Positions 3,732-49,325 of a DNA stretch of 64,000 nt are shown here, in pieces. The stretch covers positions 193,084-257,083 of the forward strand of contig JBAZSE010000001.1 of assembly GCA_041662565.1 (NCBI GenBank), read 5' to 3'. Below the pieces are notes generated by a model. That model searched no databases, was not told the origin of the DNA, and was given only the letters and a program-made list of their open reading frames with translations. Each line of letters begins with the position of its first letter. Position 1 is the stretch's first letter. Origin of the DNA: Patescibacteria group bacterium (GTDB taxonomy: Bacteria; Patescibacteriota; Patescibacteriia; UBA1558; UBA10009). The translations under genes and the position numbers were made by a program.

Positions 3732-4934
3732 ATGTCTATAAATGTCAAAGTCAAACCGATGGAAGTTAAGCCGGAAATGGAAACTTTCGCCAAAATTAAA
3801 GTTTTTGGCGTAGGTGGGTCCGGCGGTTCGGCCATTAATCGAATGATAAAATCCAAAATCAGAGGTGTGGATTTTATTGCGGTTAATACCGATGCCCAGG
3901 CCTTAAACAGTAATGCGGCGCCAAAAAAAGTCCATATCGGCAAAGGCACAACACGGGGTTTGGGCGCAGGCATGGATCCGGAAACCGGGGCTCAAGCGGC
4001 CGAAGAAGATGAAGATGAAATCAGATCGGCCATTCAGGGCGCTGATATGGTTTTTATCACTTGCGGTCTTGGTGGAGGCACTGGCACCGGTGCGGCGCCG
4101 ATTATTGCGGCCGCGGCCAGAGAGCTTGGTGCTTTAACCATTGCGGTAGTTACCAGGCCTTTTAGTTTTGAAGGCGCCCAGCGCCGGAGCATTGCCGAAA
4201 GGGGTTTGGATAAGTTAATTGATAAAGTTGATACCATTATTACCATTCCCAATGACCGTTTATTGCAAGTGATTGATAAAAAAACTTCCTTATTGGATGC
4301 GTTTGCCATTGTGGATGAGGTTTTAAAACAGGGCGTGCAGGGCATTTCGGAAATTATCACCATTCCGGGTTTAGTTAATGTGGATTTTGCCGATGTTAAA
4401 GCAATTATGAAAGATGCCGGCAGCGCTTTAATGGGCATTGGTCGCTCCAGCGGTGAAAATCGGGCAGTAGAAGCGGCCAGAGCCGCTATTGAAAGTCCGC
4501 TTTTGGAACTTTCCATCAAAGGCGCTAAAGGAGTATTGTTTACCATTACCGGCGGAACGGATCTAACCATGCATGAAGTAAACGAAGCGGCCGAAGTTAT
4601 AACATCTTCCATCGATTCCAATGCCAAAGTAATTTTTGGCGCCGTGATTGATGAATCTTTGAATTCGGAAGTGAAAATTACGGTTATTGCCACCGGCTTT
4701 AGTCCAAGCAACAGGGGAGAATCCGAAGTGGAAAGAATGCAAAAAGAAGATCGGCCTTTTACCGTTGTCCAGCCCGTTAACCAGCAATTGGAAGAAAGGC
4801 AGAATTTAGCGGCCAAAAATATTTTTTCCAAAAAGGGCAAAACCATAGAGCATAAACTGGAAGTGCCGGTTAAATCCAAAGAAGAAGAAGAATTGGAAGT
4901 TCCGGCTTTTATCAGAAGAAAGATGGGTAAATAA
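3732..4934 (+). CDS. ftsZ: Cell division GTPase FtsZ
   Basis: GGGTGTGAAPIIA tubulin signature; NTDAQAL; 400 aa. Confidence 0.95.
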   Translation: MSINVKVKPMEVKPEMETFAKIKVFGVGGSGGSAINRMIKSKIRGVDFIAVNTDAQALNSNAAPKKVHIGKGTTRGLGAGMDPETGAQAAEEDEDEIRSAIQGADMVFITCGLGGGTGTGAAPIIAAAARELGALTIAVVTRPFSFEGAQRRSIAERGLDKLIDKVDTIITIPNDRLLQVIDKKTSLLDAFAIVDEVLKQGVQGISEIITIPGLVNVDFADVKAIMKDAGSALMGIGRSSGENRAVEAARAAIESPLLELSIKGAKGVLFTITGGTDLTMHEVNEAAEVITSSIDSNAKVIFGAVIDESLNSEVKITVIATGFSPSNRGESEVERMQKEDRPFTVVQPVNQQLEERQNLAAKNIFSKKGKTIEHKLEVPVKSKEEEELEVPAFIRRKMGK

Positions 4935-15538: not shown

Positions 15539-16003
15539 ATGGAAAGAACATTAATTATCATGAAGCCCGATGCTTTGCAAAGAAGCTTGGTGGGCGAGAT
15601 AGTGGGGCGGTTTGAAAAAAAAGGCCTTAAAATCGTGGGCATGAAAATGATGGAACTGGATGATCTTAAGTTGGATGATCATTATGCTCATCATAAGGAT
15701 AAGCCATTTTTTGGCAACTTAAAAAAATTCATGAAAAGTTCGCCGGTTTTACTGATGGTTTTGGAAGGCATAGAAGTGGTTAAAGCCGTGCGTATTATTG
15801 TGGGTTCAACCAAACCGATTGAAGCCGATAGCGGAACAATTAGAGGCGATTTGGCCATGACCAATTGGAATTTGGTCCACGCTTCCGATTCATTGGAAAC
15901 CGCCGAAACCGAAATCAAGCGTTTCTTTAATCAGGATGAATTATTTAATTACAATAAGGTTGGTTCCGAGATGGTTTACGAATCAGAATTCATCGCTAAT
16001 TAG
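15539..16003 (+). CDS. ndk: Nucleoside diphosphate kinase
   Basis: ERTLIIMKPDALQRSLVGEIVGRFEKKGLKIVGMK; NxxHASD active-site His region. Confidence 0.9.
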   Translation: MERTLIIMKPDALQRSLVGEIVGRFEKKGLKIVGMKMMELDDLKLDDHYAHHKDKPFFGNLKKFMKSSPVLLMVLEGIEVVKAVRIIVGSTKPIEADSGTIRGDLAMTNWNLVHASDSLETAETEIKRFFNQDELFNYNKVGSEMVYESEFIAN

Positions 16004-16009
16004 TTGAAT

Positions 16010-16037
16010 TTGACAGATTTTTCGTCTTTGCTATACT
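16010..16037 (+). promoter_or_regulatory. Sigma70-like promoter TTGACA-N16-TATACT
   Basis: Read directly; overlaps the ndk stop. Confidence 0.45.
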
Positions 16038-16050
16038 TATATTAACCATT

Positions 16051-16131
16051 ATGTCCAAGCAAGAAACCATTAGAAATTCCAGTATTTTCAGCCAAACAGT
16101 AAATTTTGGTTTCTTTTTTACTTTTATCTAG
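16051..16131 (+). CDS. Candidate micro-ORF (26 aa, MSKQETIRNSSIFSQTVNFGFFFTFI) between promoter and terminator
   Basis: ATG 20 nt after the -10; hydrophobic C-terminus; no SD; could instead be a small RNA. Confidence 0.2.
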   Translation: MSKQETIRNSSIFSQTVNFGFFFTFI

Positions 16132-16182
16132 CTTGCCTGATGGGTTAGTTGATTTAACATAAATCATCGAGCTGAGCTCGAC

Positions 16183-16211
16183 AAAACTAGTCCATCGGTG
16201 GCTAGTTTTTT
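16183..16211 (+). terminator. Hairpin terminator AAAACTAG-N11-CTAGTTTT plus T run
   Basis: Preceded by the 15-nt palindrome TCGAGCTGAGCTCGA at 16167-16181. Confidence 0.5.
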
Positions 16212-16329
16212 GTTATAACCGGATTTGTTGTTCTAAAATTCCAGTTTTCAATCATTGATTGGCAATTAGAATTTTTGAACAATAAACAAAGCAAATTGGA
16301 CTATTTGTCCACATCAAGGAGAATGCAGA

Positions 16330-16563
16330 ATGAAGTGTTCGTGCCAGCGGAAAATAACCCGCATCATTGCCAGGCAATACTATAACACTGCTTTAATCGG
16401 CGGTGGCATTGCTACAGATGTCGTGGGTTGGGAATTGACCCTCCAGGGCCATTGCTCAAACGGCTGCGGGCCTGTTAACTTGGGCTCCGCCCGATCAATT
16501 CAGGAAGTGCAAACAAGGTACCCCAACATAAGCATTGAGGAGAAGGCCAATGCCGCTTATTAA
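16330..16563 (+). CDS. Hypothetical Cys-containing small protein (GC-rich islet, gene 1)
   Basis: 77 aa, MKCSCQRK...HCSNGCGP; aaggagaatgcagaATG RBS; local GC about 50% against roughly 38% background. Confidence 0.3.
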   Translation: MKCSCQRKITRIIARQYYNTALIGGGIATDVVGWELTLQGHCSNGCGPVNLGSARSIQEVQTRYPNISIEEKANAAY

Positions 16564-16798
16564 TGACAAGAGCTGTGTCTGCGGCCGACCAATCAGCGTG
16601 ATTACCATCAGGGCTGGCGATCAGCCAGATGCTGATGCAGTTTCGCTCAACGTCCAGCATGGCTTTCACGCTTATGGCAGCTGTCATAACAACAACTGCA
16701 ATAAGGTCTATCTGGGCTTTGGCCTTGATGAGCGTAAGTTGGCCGATGACATGCAGCTTACATTTGTGGCCACCTGGCGCTGCACAAACTTTACTTGA
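16550..16798 (+). CDS. Hypothetical Cys/His-rich small protein (GC-rich islet, gene 2)
   Basis: 82 aa, MPLINDKSCVCGRP...GSCHNNNC; gaggagaagg SD; overlaps gene 1; followed by terminator AAGGGGGTTT..AAACCCCCTCTTTTTTT. Confidence 0.3.
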   Translation: MPLINDKSCVCGRPISVITIRAGDQPDADAVSLNVQHGFHAYGSCHNNNCNKVYLGFGLDERKLADDMQLTFVATWRCTNFT

Positions 16799-16865
16799 AT
16801 CCGATCAACGATTCAGCCAAGGGGGTTTATTGCCAAAACCCCCTCTTTTTTTCCACAAATTTTAT

Positions 16866-16893
16866 TTGACAAATATTTTTGATTTGCTATGAT
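16866..16893 (+). promoter_or_regulatory. Sigma70-like promoter TTGACA-N16-TATGAT
   Basis: Read directly. Confidence 0.45.
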
Positions 16894-16904
16894 ATCCATA
16901 AGTT

Positions 16905-16973
16905 ATGAAAAATTCACTTAAAAACCAGAATTTGTTAAATATTATTATTACGCTGATTAAGGTAGTCAGGTAA
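16905..16973 (+). CDS. Candidate micro-ORF (22 aa, MKNSLKNQNLLNIIITLIKVVR)
   Basis: Sits between the promoter and a perfect hairpin terminator; hydrophobic core; no SD. Confidence 0.2.
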   Translation: MKNSLKNQNLLNIIITLIKVVR

Positions 16974-16995
16974 TTTTTTAGTAAATTTAAAAAAT

Positions 16996-17025
16996 AACGC
17001 TGACTGCCAAGGTCAGCGTTTTTTG
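16996..17025 (+). terminator. Rho-independent terminator AACGCTGAC-N8-GTCAGCGTT plus T5
   Basis: Perfect 9-bp stem. Confidence 0.65.
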
Positions 17026-17116
17026 TTAAGCAGAAAATTTCTTCTCAAAAGTATTAAAGCCTTGGGCAGAAGATTTTTGCTGAACATTTCACAATCAAAT
17101 ATTTTGGAGTTCCAAA

Positions 17117-17407
17117 ATGCTGACCGCAGAAGAAAAGGCGAAATTCGCCGAAGGGTTTTATCATGATTTATTTGGGCGCTACGCAGTGCCCGGTGTTCAT
17201 GTCAATCCCGATGTTGTTTCAATTTCGGCCTTAAATAACGGAGGCGTGCCTCATAACCATGCAGGTTGCGCCGCCAAATTGGAGTGGGAAATTCTTTCCC
17301 ACGATCCAATAACAGGCAATATTCCTGTTCTGGTTTGCCCGGTTTGCAAGCAAAGCGGGCAAGAATCCAAGATCGCCAAAATCGATAGTTTGTGGCAATT
17401 AGCTTGA
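17117..17407 (+). CDS. Hypothetical small protein with HNHAGC and CPVCKQ motifs (possible zinc ribbon)
   Basis: 96 aa; ggag SD. Confidence 0.3.
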   Translation: MLTAEEKAKFAEGFYHDLFGRYAVPGVHVNPDVVSISALNNGGVPHNHAGCAAKLEWEILSHDPITGNIPVLVCPVCKQSGQESKIAKIDSLWQLA

Positions 17408-17571
17408 CTAATAGCTGTAAGGATTGCTACAATCTAACTCCGGTATTTTCCGGAAAACAATTCCAAGGGGGCCAAAGTTGACCCACGATAGAGATAACTC
17501 TTCTAATGTCAGCGGTTTACCGCCTGAAGAAGAGCAGTTCGATCCACCTAAACCAATTCTGGAGGATCACG

Positions 17572-17760
17572 ATGTCTGAGTCCGATCATTCGGACGCTGA
17601 TTTTGCTACCATCACTGCAACCCAATCGTCAACGAATACAGATACAGAAGTTCAGCCATTGTTTCTGCTGCCGCCTAATCTAACTGGAATTGCTCGTGAT
17701 AAGCAGATCCAGAGAGATGCTATCAGAGCAGCTAGGACCAAAAATTCAAGTCGTCATTAG
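17572..17760 (+). CDS. Hypothetical acidic Ser/Thr-rich small protein
   Basis: ggaggatcacgATG; 62 aa. Confidence 0.3.
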   Translation: MSESDHSDADFATITATQSSTNTDTEVQPLFLLPPNLTGIARDKQIQRDAIRAARTKNSSRH

Positions 17761-17783
17761 GACGATGTTATGGAGGATAGCAT

Positions 17784-17966
17784 ATGTCCCTTGCCAGCCT
17801 AGAGCAGATGGGGCTCGTGGATAACGAAGTGATTTATGATGTCTGGTCTCGTCGAGGATCCTTTGAAGGGGTAGTTACTTCCAAGATACAAGAGGTAACT
17901 AATCCAACAAACCAGTCTTCATCTGCCAGTCAGGCAGAGCCCTCTCATAGAGGGGCGAGGAAATGA
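17784..17966 (+). CDS. Hypothetical small protein
   Basis: ggaggatagcatATG; 60 aa; followed by a hairpin plus T7 at about 18003-18040. Confidence 0.3.
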   Translation: MSLASLEQMGLVDNEVIYDVWSRRGSFEGVVTSKIQEVTNPTNQSSSASQAEPSHRGARK

Positions 17967-18042
17967 TCTTCGTTTCTAAGAGCGTCTCAATGACGTTTCT
18001 AACCGCTTACCACATCAATGGTCAGCGGTCTTTTTTTACCCA

Positions 18043-18651
18043 TTAATCAATGGGTAAATCAATCGGAGTTTTATCTTCCGTTTTATTTTTAACAAGCGGC
18101 TGATAAATTTCGTAATTGTTATTTTGATCTGGAGTTGCGCCAAAGGGATTAAGCAAAGCATCGGGCCCCTTATCATGTTCATGATTTACAGGCAGAGGTG
18201 TTTCGGCAAAAGCCGGACGAATATATGTTGGTGTGGCTGCTTTAATTGTTGGTTCCGTAACTGGTTTTTTATTGTCGGCCATAATTTCATCCATTCTTCT
18301 TTGGGCTTTAATTCTTTTGGTTTTGGCCTCCTCTCCGATTTTTAATTTGTCTTTTTCTTGGGCTTGGTTTTTAACAAAACTATTAACCTTGCCCAAAACA
18401 TTTTTTGGAGTATGCTTAAAAATTCCGGCCTTGCCCCAAGCTTTAACAGCGGCTACGGCTTCTTTTTTTGAAAGTGCTTTAGGATCATAGCCGCCCTTTA
18501 ATCCTTTGGCGATTTTTTTTGCCCTAACAGAATCAAAGCCGGCATCAATCAGGGCTTTTTCATTCAAGGCCTTAAGCTTTAATGATTTGGGGGTTAGGCC
18601 TAAAGCCAAGTTACCCATTTTTTTCATTAATGGATTGTAGGCAATTTTCAT
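18043..18651 (-). CDS. Hypothetical Lys/Ala-rich protein
   Basis: 202 aa, no TM helix; KAxGKxG repeats. Confidence 0.35.
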   Translation of the reverse strand: MKIAYNPLMKKMGNLALGLTPKSLKLKALNEKALIDAGFDSVRAKKIAKGLKGGYDPKALSKKEAVAAVKAWGKAGIFKHTPKNVLGKVNSFVKNQAQEKDKLKIGEEAKTKRIKAQRRMDEIMADNKKPVTEPTIKAATPTYIRPAFAETPLPVNHEHDKGPDALLNPFGATPDQNNNYEIYQPLVKNKTEDKTPIDLPID

Positions 18652-26025: not shown

Positions 26026-26224
26026 AACCTCATATTGACTTATTTTAATCACTCTGATATAATCGTTTTAAGTGTAAAAGTGAATATCATCAGTAGGGGA
26101 ATAATAGTACTCTATATGACTACGGCCGGTAATTGGTCAAATTTCACTTTGTGTTATCCGAAATCTTGACTAGTTACCTTTTTTATTAAATTAAGAAAGC
26201 AAATAATCAAATTATTAATTAATT

Positions 26225-36774: not shown

Positions 36775-36930
36775 AAGAGAGGCATTCCCTCGGGACAAAA
36801 CCCTTTGGTAGTCCTCTCATCGTGATAAAGTTATTTTACCAAATTGGTTTTATTTGTAAATATTGACATAATTCATAAAAGATGGTATCTTAATATATTA
36901 AGCTATTGTTCATTAAATTTTACCTAATAT

Positions 36931-43573: not shown

Positions 43574-43688
43574 AGGGCCTTTTCAACCACGTTCCTATGC
43601 CGGTTGTCCCAGCCACGCCACCATCCGGTGACAGTTCGGAATACAGGTTTTTGTTTTTTTACGATATAATAACTTATTAACAGTGTCA

Positions 43689-49082: not shown

Positions 49083-49227
49083 TAAATATTTTTTATTTTA
49101 TAAAATTTTTCCCTTTCTGTGGGATTTTTTATTTTCTTGATCCCCCTCTAAAATCATGCTATAATTCCTAAACAATTTAAATAAATTTGGCCTAAACTCT
49201 AGCTATTGCTGGGGCATGGTATAAAAT

Positions 49228-49325
49228 CGTTGAACACATCCAACCCGTCATTCAGGGCGTGTTCAACGTTGCGTAGGGAAACTTACGTAAGGCCCGCAAG
49301 GGCCTCCTGGTGGCGGGTTTTGTGT
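49228..49325 (+). other. GC-rich structured element (10-bp IR, GNRA hairpin GGCCC-GCAA-GGGCC, terminator-like CCCGC..GCGGGTTTT) in the leader of ORF 49370
   Basis: cgttgaacac..gtgttcaacg; ggcccgcaagggcc; gcgggtttt read directly. Confidence 0.4.

Follow-up and report, generated by a model that had tools for sequence, protein, structure and literature searches.

What are two short cassettes, each made of a promoter, a micro-open reading frame (micro-ORF) and a terminator, doing among the genes of very small proteins in a bacterium of the Patescibacteria? The cassettes lie in the region 16004-18040 of a window of 64,000 nt (the whole stretch of DNA that was analysed, from contig JBAZSE010000001.1), in a variable slot between ndk and an ATP-binding cassette (ABC) transporter gene. 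An initial annotation of this DNA had described a GC-rich foreign islet of small Cys-containing proteins bracketed by the two cassettes, and had suggested type I toxin-like or regulatory peptides, or alternatively small RNAs (sRNAs), as their products. From comparison with homologous contigs (labelled L004-L009, L041, L214, L218-L221, L224, L225 and L228) and from predicted folding, we consider it probable that both cassettes are ribosome-mediated transcription attenuators of a new family, controlling the small proteins encoded next to them.

Leader peptides and alternative helices of the two cassettes

In the arrangement that we propose, the region would be expressed as three transcription units for five very small proteins (P1 to P5, Table 1), two of which would start with leader-peptide attenuators. 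A near-consensus promoter would give an mRNA whose first 20-30 codons are a leader peptide, and translation of this peptide would start, as for most host genes, with no Shine-Dalgarno (SD) sequence. A segment just past the leader stop codon (segment 2) would be able to pair with the 5' arm of the terminator (segment 3). A ribosome at the stop codon would cover segment 2, in which case the 3:4 terminator would form and a short RNA of about 125-170 nt would result. An early stall, at F-G-F-F-F-T-F in leader 1 or at N-I-I-I-T-L-I in leader 2, would set segment 2 free to form the 2:3 antiterminator, and transcription would then read on past a long conserved hairpin and reach the SD-led genes. Leader 1 would control P1-P2 and leader 2 would control P3 and probably P4-P5, which may also be transcribed from a promoter of their own (promoter 3).

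Three sigma-70-type promoters with an extended -10 element (TTGACA/T, a spacer of 16-18 nt, TGCTAnnnT) match 11, 11 and 10 of the 12 consensus positions, and promoter 1 is kept in 10/10 homologous leaders that span that stretch, L224 being cut by the contig end. The leader ATG follows 13 nt past the -10 element for leader ORF 1 in the window and 8-13 nt past it for leader 2. Leader ORF 1 is intact in 11/11 homologues from an invariant ATG and has 24-31 codons, with the peptide consensus M-[STI]-x-Q-E-T ... F-[GV]-[FV]-F-F-x-F and with Phe at 4-7 of the last 8-13 codons. Leader ORF 2 is intact in 7/7 homologues and has 20-33 codons; its Ile-rich end (3-7 Ile codons) is followed by V-S or V-R. 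Both UUU and AUU are codons that an AT-rich composition favours. In leader 1 the ATG and the anchor are 47, 50 or 53 nt apart, the indels within the ORF all being multiples of 3, and in leader 2 the ATG is separated from GGTCAG by 53, 56, 59, 83 or 92 nt, all of which are 2 mod 3. Outside the two leader ORFs, gaps are 1-19 nt and of any length. The ratio of nonsynonymous to synonymous change (pN/pS) is 0.19-0.36 for close pairs of leader 1 and 0.35-0.59 for leader 2, and the Phe cluster of leader 1 shows synonymous changes between TTT and TTC. By these sequence comparisons both leader ORFs evolve as coding sequence. The leader-2 peptides vary in length, with 22 aa in the window, 20-21 aa in L224, L218 and L219, and 30-33 aa in L007 (8822-8923), L006 (11741-11842) and L214 (2784-2876), where the end is made of 16-18 apolar residues and thus approaches the length of a membrane span.

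The terminator and the antiterminator of each leader are mutually exclusive and both are conserved, and the antiterminators of both leaders have compensatory changes. RNAalifold, when given the 11 leader-1 sequences without any prior structure, returned the antiterminator helix and not the terminator. In this helix 97.9% of the cells are paired, compensatory changes are seen at 6/13 pairs, 0/500 shuffles reached the observed value, and slid controls gave 14-46%. Its sequence is wholly different in each subgroup (CTGATGG:CCGTCAG, TCTGGTGG:CCACCAGA and CTTGCGG:CCGCAAG). The leader-1 terminator was assessed by per-sequence hairpin detection, since MAFFT offsets the two terminator types, and a hairpin with a T-run was found in 11/11 homologues. 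For leader 2, the 2:3 helix is 92.1% paired with 8 compensatory cells, and its covariation score was reached by 0/500 shuffles; the 3:4 terminator is 96% paired, with too little variation for covariation to exceed shuffles. A hairpin with a T-run is present in 4/7 leader-2 sequences, and the T-tract of L224, L219 and L218 is interrupted (CTTTAGTTT). The folds of leaders 1 and 2 have z values of -3.8 and -6.4, respectively. Beyond the terminators, the long hairpin at 16228-16282 (-21.1 kcal/mol, z = -5.5) has 93.8% of its cells paired and 9 compensatory pairs, a value reached by 0/500 shuffles, and the sequence of its counterpart after attenuator 2 is conserved in L218, L224 and L219. The small hairpin within leader ORF 1 varies slightly and its support is weak.

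The leaders are associated with the small-protein genes. Leader 1 lies 5' of 10/11 genes or gene pairs of family A (P1, P2 and their relatives) for which the upstream DNA is complete. Searches with nhmmer found leader 1 in L008, L006 and L041 and leader 2 in L007 and L006, and an anchored DNA pattern added leader 1 in L214. The contigs found via family-A proteins alone (L218, L220, L221, L224, L225 and L228) have leader 1 directly upstream (nhmmer E 1e-21 to 1e-27), and the contig of L219 starts inside leader 1, which is thus partial there. The genes that follow leader 2 belong to family B in L007 and L006 and are P4-like in L218, L224 and L219, and at 4 family-A loci leader 2 lies directly 3' of the family-A gene, an arrangement like that of the window. 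The anchored leader-1 pattern gave 4 metagenome matches (1 new, 2 already known and 1 random). The bare 17-mer TTTTGGTTTCTTTTTTA gave at least 120 viral-contig matches, all of them by chance and none a real leader.

We then asked how a ribosome on the leader would bear on termination, using partition-function folding with a masked footprint of 28 nt, which is an equilibrium and not a kinetic calculation. A mask on the leader stop codon raised the predicted terminator probability to 0.65-1.0. A mask that put the A site on the first codons for Phe or Ile gave a probability of about 0 in 9/11 leader-1 and in 3-4/7 leader-2 sequences. This is how a classical leader-peptide attenuator would behave. 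The stop codon was within a ribosome footprint of segment 2 in all leaders examined, and the positions of the stop codons and of the regulatory codons fit attenuation. With the native upstream sequence, the terminator probability was at most 0.17 in 9/11 leader-1 and 4/7 leader-2 sequences; when the upstream sequence was shuffled, its median was about 0.99 or more in 17/18 leaders, the exception being leader 1 of the window (0.77).

With regard to the initial annotation, the near-consensus sigma-70 promoter, the micro-ORF and the terminator of each cassette are borne out, and both cassettes, together with P1, P2 and P4, are conserved in related genomes. Its suggestion of regulatory peptides agrees with micro-ORFs that are conserved, coding-like and joined to an RNA switch. 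The cassettes do not bracket the region: the second sits in the middle of it, between P2 and P3, and both are 5' of genes.

Small proteins, their composition and the slot downstream of ndk

The reading frames of P1 and P2 overlap by 14 nt, which confirms the two overlapping SD-led Cys-protein genes of the initial annotation, and L220, L221 and L228 also have an A1-A2 pair of overlapping genes. BLASTP gave no alignment between P1 and P2, and their kinship is visible only via profiles and intermediate sequences. Homologues were found for P1 (P0006, P0007, P0008, P0010 and P0011) and for P2 (P0009 and P0012), and small Cys proteins also came to light when the slots after ndk were compared among relatives. 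P2, P3 and a first family-A profile of 4 sequences, searched against 5.8 billion clusters, returned the queries alone. An exhaustive search with a profile of P1, P2 and two relatives returned 7 further proteins of 76-82 aa, and by exhaustive profile search family A amounts to 11 clusters among 1.84 billion representatives. The family splits into a P1-like and a P2-like subfamily. Its invariant positions are C-x-C ... I ... G-x-C-x-N-(G)-C-x-x-V, and of its Cys residues three are invariant and the fourth is nearly so. The AlphaFold2 model of P1 is confident and beta-rich (predicted local distance difference test score, pLDDT, 83; predicted template modelling score, pTM, 0.64), and Foldseek found nothing for it at E < 0.01 in PDB and BFVD. 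P1 to P5 had no match in Pfam, the zinc-ribbon families included, or in NCBIfam, PHROGs, PADLOC and the PDB sequences. P1 and P2 would probably form a zinc-binding heterodimer, and the small four-Cys proteins may act in a response to starvation or translation stress.

The C-terminal half of P3 resembles, by eye, family B (CxxCG...SLDPxTG...CVNPxC), which has proteins of 47 aa in L006 and 78 aa in L007. These two match each other with E from 5e-10 to 6e-14, and P3 itself had no significant match. The single-sequence AlphaFold2 model of P3 is unusable (pLDDT 41). Compared with L218, L224 and L219, which lack promoter 3, P3 and promoter 3 constitute an insertion of about 335 nt in the window. Three other contigs carry P3, and since the shared region is 100% identical, there is no population variation to be read from them. 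P4 has a homologue in L218 (E 1.7e-7) that links on to L224. P5 has no detectable homologue; small acidic ORFs occupy its position in L218. The element with the CCGG hairpin is kept in L218, L219 and L224, directly 5' of the P4-like gene, and a terminator similar to that of the P4-P5 unit is present in L218 and L224. In the window, an extra TTG-initiated ORF of 33 codons (17478-17579, +) follows the conserved AAGGGGG element and overlaps the start of P4. In L218, L224 and L219 the P4-like gene itself begins at this element, so the window appears to carry an insertion or duplication before P4.

The initial annotation had put local GC at about 50% against a background of about 38%. This holds for P1-P2, whose GC of 0.512 is the highest that any 500-nt window reaches in the 64 kb (z about 2.7), and not for the rest: GC is about 0.47 for P3 to P5 and 0.28-0.33 in the AT-rich leaders, which gives 0.428 for the whole interval against a background of 0.390. 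Other 500-nt windows, at 3751, 21301 and 26801, reach 0.49-0.50. GC at third codon positions (GC3) is 0.59 in P1-P2 compared with 0.38 in the host. Family-A genes are GC-richer than their flanks in 8/9 other loci as well, which makes high GC a trait of family A.

An SD core (GGAG, GAGG or AGGA) was found upstream of 4/62 long ORFs in the window (about 6%) versus 5/5 of the small genes, and an SD-like motif was present in all family-A homologues elsewhere for which the upstream sequence was inspected. The two leader ORFs are without an SD, which is in line with host practice. The GGAGGA that the initial annotation had assigned to three further ORFs is found at P4 and P5, and P3 has TGGAG instead. 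With the host codon model the five small ORFs score best in their own frame, the frame-0 signal of P5 being weak. Their status as real genes thus stands on codon signal in the right frame and SDs and, for P1, P2 and P4, on homologues. Strong SDs on regulated genes, when they are present at about 6% genome-wide, raise a testable question of specialised translation. The observations that would have spoken against the initial annotation were also looked for: no small protein has a homologue whose function is known, the GC anomaly is of moderate size, and relatives share the micro-ORFs.

The gene order conserved in relatives is cysS, comEC, a gene of the metallo-beta-lactamase fold, a response regulator, ndk, the variable slot and the ABC transporter. 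The window is part of an 809-kb contig (ena:ERZ27249449:k141_1565377), and its Ndk is 74-88% identical to that of the nearest genomes, which are metagenome-assembled genomes labelled Candidatus Komeilibacteria or Parcubacteria. The same module is found in the slot formed by ndk, a 202-aa gene and the ABC transporter in L218, L221 and L224, it is near ndk in L225, L008 and L041, and it is missing from the slot in L004, L005 and L009. It adjoins ndk even in loci that were retrieved without an ndk query (L218, L221 and L225). As far as sequence comparison goes, the locus is a lineage-specific mosaic in which leader 1, leader 2 and several families of small genes occur in combinations that differ across relatives. 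In L006 (10997-11491) leader 1 precedes an unrelated SD-led ORF of 70 aa with no family-A gene there, so leaders and genes were evidently recombined in modular fashion.

Gene insertion in this lineage has a hot spot in the slot that follows ndk. The cargo of this slot in L004 and L221 includes PhoU-like and PiT phosphate-transporter genes, L005 has a 279-aa NAD-kinase-like gene, and L225 has DUF1846 together with thymidylate kinase. The 202-aa Lys/Ala-rich protein encoded at 18043-18651 (-), convergent with the small genes, is kept at the right-hand edge of the module in L224, L221, L004 and L218; a family match was not found for it.

Table 1 Features of the region between ndk and the ABC transporter gene. 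Positions are those of the window; all features are on the plus strand.
Feature	Position	Strand	Description
Promoter 1	16010-16037	+	TTGACA, 16 nt, TG-TATACT; 11/12
Leader ORF 1	16051-16131	+	26 codons, MSKQETIRNSSIFSQTVNFGFFFTFI, no SD; start about 7 nt from the inferred transcription start
Small hairpin CCAAA-N8-TTTGG	16092-16109	+	Inside leader ORF 1, over the first Phe codons; RNAalifold columns 97-101/110-114
Leader-1 antiterminator, 5' strand (segment 2)	16137-16150	+	6 nt past the leader stop codon; pairs with 16185-16198
Leader-1 terminator	16183-16211	+	Stem 16187-16205, U-tract 16206-16211; 5' arm 16185-16198 shared with the antiterminator
Long AT-rich hairpin (TTGTTC...GAACAA)	16228-16282	+	Between the leader-1 terminator and the P1 SD
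P1	16330-16563	+	77 aa, family A1 (C-x-C ... G-x-C-x-N-G-C-x-x-V-x-L-G), SD AAGGAG
P2	16550-16798	+	82 aa, family A2, P1 paralogue, SD GAGGAG
Terminator of the P1-P2 unit	16820-16852	+	9-bp stem, then T-run
Promoter 2	16866-16893	+	TTGACA, 16 nt, TG-TATGAT; 11/12; conserved in 7 homologous leaders
Leader ORF 2	16905-16973	+	22 codons, MKNSLKNQNLLNIIITLIKVVR, no SD
Attenuator 2	16950-17025	+	Segments 1: 16950-16958, 2: 16961-16971, 3: 16997-17008, 4: 17011-17019; U-tract 17020-17025
Leader-2 terminator	16996-17025	+	Intrinsic terminator (3:4), with a minus-strand call as well
Long hairpin after attenuator 2	17029-17081	+	Counterpart of 16228-16282; -16 kcal/mol, z = -2.2
P3	17117-17407	+	96 aa, SD core TGGAG
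Promoter 3	17404-17433	+	TTGACT, 18 nt, TG-TACAAT; 10/12; overlaps the P3 stop codon
5' untranslated region element	17444-17477	+	CCGG-TATTTT-CCGG hairpin, then CCAAGGGGG
P4	17572-17760	+	62 aa, predicted disordered, conserved PLFxLPPxLTG...QIQ, SD GGAGGA
P5	17784-17966	+	60 aa, Ser/Thr/Gln-rich, SD GGAGGA
Terminator of the P4-P5 unit	18002-18037	+	-14 kcal/mol, z = -4.1; convergent with 18043-18651 (-)

Attenuation weighed against other readings

Several points weigh against attenuation of the kind that we propose. All of the support is computational and the folding is that of an equilibrium, in which free leader-1 RNA favours the 2:3 helix, and the model presumes that transcription and translation are coupled in these bacteria. 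Leader 1 of the window is the weakest case, with a terminator probability of 0.37 for the native upstream sequence versus 0.77 for shuffled sequence and with 20/100 shuffles at or below the native value, and constant termination is predicted for leader 1 of L220 and for leader 2 of L224 and L219. In leader 2 the 1:4 helix shows 80% pairing and no covariation support; segment 1 is decayed in L224, L219 and L218. The UUU (Phe) and AUU (Ile) codons could be the chance yield of AT-rich sequence. The U-rich core TTTTGGTTTCTTTTT of leader 1 hardly varies in its nucleotides, a sign of constraint on the RNA as well as on the coding sequence. Finally, the regulated genes include none for amino-acid biosynthesis or for tRNA synthetases, so that physiology offers no confirmation of the sensing of Phe or Ile; control of such genes is a mark of the classical biosynthetic subclass of attenuators and not of the mechanism as such. 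If attenuation does operate, the signal sensed would be the supply of charged Phe-tRNA and Ile-tRNA or the general capacity for translation. That the two leaders are specifically gauges of Phe and Ile supply, switching on SD-dependent, GC-rich and probably zinc-binding micro-proteins as a specially translated starvation or host-interaction regulon when supply or translation falls short, is a tentative suggestion that we regard as possible and on the unlikely side.

The near-invariance of the core UUUUGGUUUCUUUUU at the nucleotide level would also be expected if the switch were set by a factor in trans or a ligand (a riboswitch, an RNA-binding protein or a tRNA) with the ORF being incidental, and the additional conserved hairpins and the lack of any relation of the downstream genes to Phe or Ile metabolism point the same way. 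Such a switch seems quite improbable to us given that the ORFs are open in 18/18 leaders, that their ATG is invariant, their indels are all in frame and their pN/pS is below 1, that the stop codon is always within a ribosome footprint of segment 2, and that Rfam has no riboswitch or T-box match even at E <= 10. The cassettes could instead be stand-alone sRNA genes, perhaps of dual function, whose transcripts of about 170 and about 125 nt act in trans with the ORFs being secondary. Near-consensus promoters, efficient terminators and stable folds are what such genes would have, an attenuator-derived RNA that acts in trans has a precedent in rnTrpL (PMC6614838), and leader 2 has 12-nt complementarities (92%) to the sequence just 5' of the P4 SD (16925-16936 with 17551-17562) and to codons 14-18 of P2 (16947-16958 with 16591-16602). 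These complementarities were not seen on inspection of L218, and their length is that expected by chance (40 inverted pairs in 3.2 kb). Moreover, the cassettes are always directly 5' of small-protein genes, no strong promoter intervenes for P1 or P3, and an sRNA has no need for a conserved antiterminator or for an ORF that evolves in frame. We therefore find sRNA genes of this kind rather improbable, while an sRNA function can coexist with attenuation; leader transcripts that end at the terminator would be abundant and might act in trans as well. The suggestion in the initial annotation that the micro-ORFs encode type I toxin-like membrane peptides, restrained by mRNA structure or by antisense RNA, does not hold up well. 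It would suit the 16-18 hydrophobic residues at the end of the leader-2 peptides of L007, L006 and L214, the highly structured mRNA and the call of the leader-2 terminator on the minus strand as well. The leader-2 peptides of the window, L224, L218 and L219, however, have 9-13 hydrophobic residues broken by Lys or Arg, and the hydrophobic tail of leader 1 has 7-9. In the window the peptides end in FGFFFTFI and LLNIIITLIKVVR, below the about 18 apolar residues of a membrane span. Antisense promoters match at most 9/12 positions, at a frequency near that of shuffled sequence, Rfam has no match to a toxin or antitoxin RNA family, and what is conserved in the peptides falls on the strands of the RNA switch. 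Taken together, this makes toxins very improbable.

The remaining question is whether the region is a recent foreign islet from a phage, a plasmid or another bacterium, as the initial annotation had it, in which case the promoter-terminator units would have come along with it or would insulate it. The GC and GC3 of P1-P2 given above, the SDs on all five genes in a genome almost without SDs, and a slot that varies after ndk, with the module absent from three relatives and with P3 and promoter 3 as an insertion, could all be understood in this way. Against this stand the presence of the module in the same slot or near ndk in six other loci, a high GC that is family-wide, and the confinement of family A to the lineage. 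No meaningful flanking repeats, integrase or adjacent tRNA were found around the region, the nearest tRNA being 3.5 kb off, and a phage DNA search, phage and plasmid tblastn and two protein scans of viral contigs gave zero matches. A recent foreign origin is accordingly improbable, and the description as a foreign islet is not supported. Attenuation by a translating ribosome thus remains the reading that we prefer for both cassettes.

Relation to known systems and further elements of the window

An Rfam cmscan of 15900-18200 at E <= 10 gave chance-level matches to unrelated families (such as mir-927 and the S15 leader). None of the elements reached a gathering score, and Phe_leader, Leu_leader, Thr_leader, the Leu/phe leader and T-box were unmatched. 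Leaders 1 and 2 would be two new attenuator RNA families, absent from Rfam and comparatively well supported, and the locus adds at least two small-protein families absent from Pfam. A full-text search of the literature for leader-peptide attenuation or terminators in Patescibacteria or the Candidate Phyla Radiation found no paper.

The PheL peptide of E. coli has the run FFFAFFFTFP. Leader 1 is closest in design to the leader-peptide attenuators pheL-pheA and pheM-pheST of Gammaproteobacteria (Rfam Phe_leader; PMC3082878). As in pheL and pheM, a short ORF with terminal Phe codons (NFGFFFTFI) is followed by an antiterminator and a terminator that share a strand, and the position of the ribosome would decide between them. 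Leader 1 differs in its longer peptide (24-31 aa) with a conserved polar N-terminus, M-x-N-Q-E-T, and in what lies downstream, which is small four-Cys proteins and not pheA or pheST. Unlike the trp and phe leaders, it has no 1:2 helix that we could identify, and no match to Rfam in sequence or structure. Patescibacteria are generally described as being without amino-acid biosynthesis.

The classical cases of branched-chain and threonine leader-peptide attenuation are ilvL, ivbL, leuL and thrL. Leader 2 resembles them in a C-terminal half rich in Ile, Leu, Val and Thr (NIIITLIKVV, with up to 7 Ile in L007) and in its four segments, of which 1 resembles 3 and 2 resembles 4, so that 1:2, 2:3 and 3:4 and also 1:4 can pair. 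It differs from them in its unrelated sequence and in the P3-like or P4-like genes downstream. Stalling on a leader ORF can also turn on genes that do not make the sensed amino acid, as in mgtL/mgtP of Salmonella and in ermCL. The signals and sequences of those leaders differ from the ones described here, in which nothing points to the sensing of Mg2+, proline or an antibiotic. In Sinorhizobium, the terminated attenuator RNA rnTrpL and the leader peptide peTrpL each act in trans (PMC6614838, PMC7298713), so that roles as an sRNA and as a regulatory peptide are compatible with attenuation; both are unrelated to the RNA and the peptides of our leaders.

With the type I toxins Ibs, Fst, TisB and Hok the cassettes share a tiny ORF, a hydrophobic tail and a structured, short RNA that is here predicted to be strongly transcribed. 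They differ from these toxins in the short hydrophobic stretch in the window, the lack of an evident antitoxin RNA, the 5' fusion to genes and the conserved antiterminator. The CPxCG proteins of haloarchaea are small zinc-finger micro-proteins. P1, P2 and family B are similar to zinc micro-proteins in having fewer than 100 aa and four Cys in knuckle-like pairs (C-x-C with C-x-N-G-C, and CxxCG with C-x-N-P-x-C). A match to a Pfam zinc ribbon was not found, however, and the model of P1 has no significant fold match.

What distinguishes the locus is that a single conserved module joins the leaders to the micro-protein families. Should the leaders indeed sense amino-acid supply, they would open a direct way into the question of how these uncultured, host-dependent bacteria register starvation, with the micro-proteins as effectors.

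Further strong promoters with an extended -10 element were found in the window at 52260-52233 (-), where a short GC hairpin without an Rfam match follows, at 36863-36891 (+) and at 26035-26063 (+), the last of which precedes the genes of ribosomal proteins S12 and S7. Two orphan structured RNAs reach the Rfam gathering level elsewhere in the window, namely a DUF3800-IX RNA at 43581-43649 (-) with 54.2 bits and a LOOT RNA at 49189-49305 (+) with 79.4 bits.

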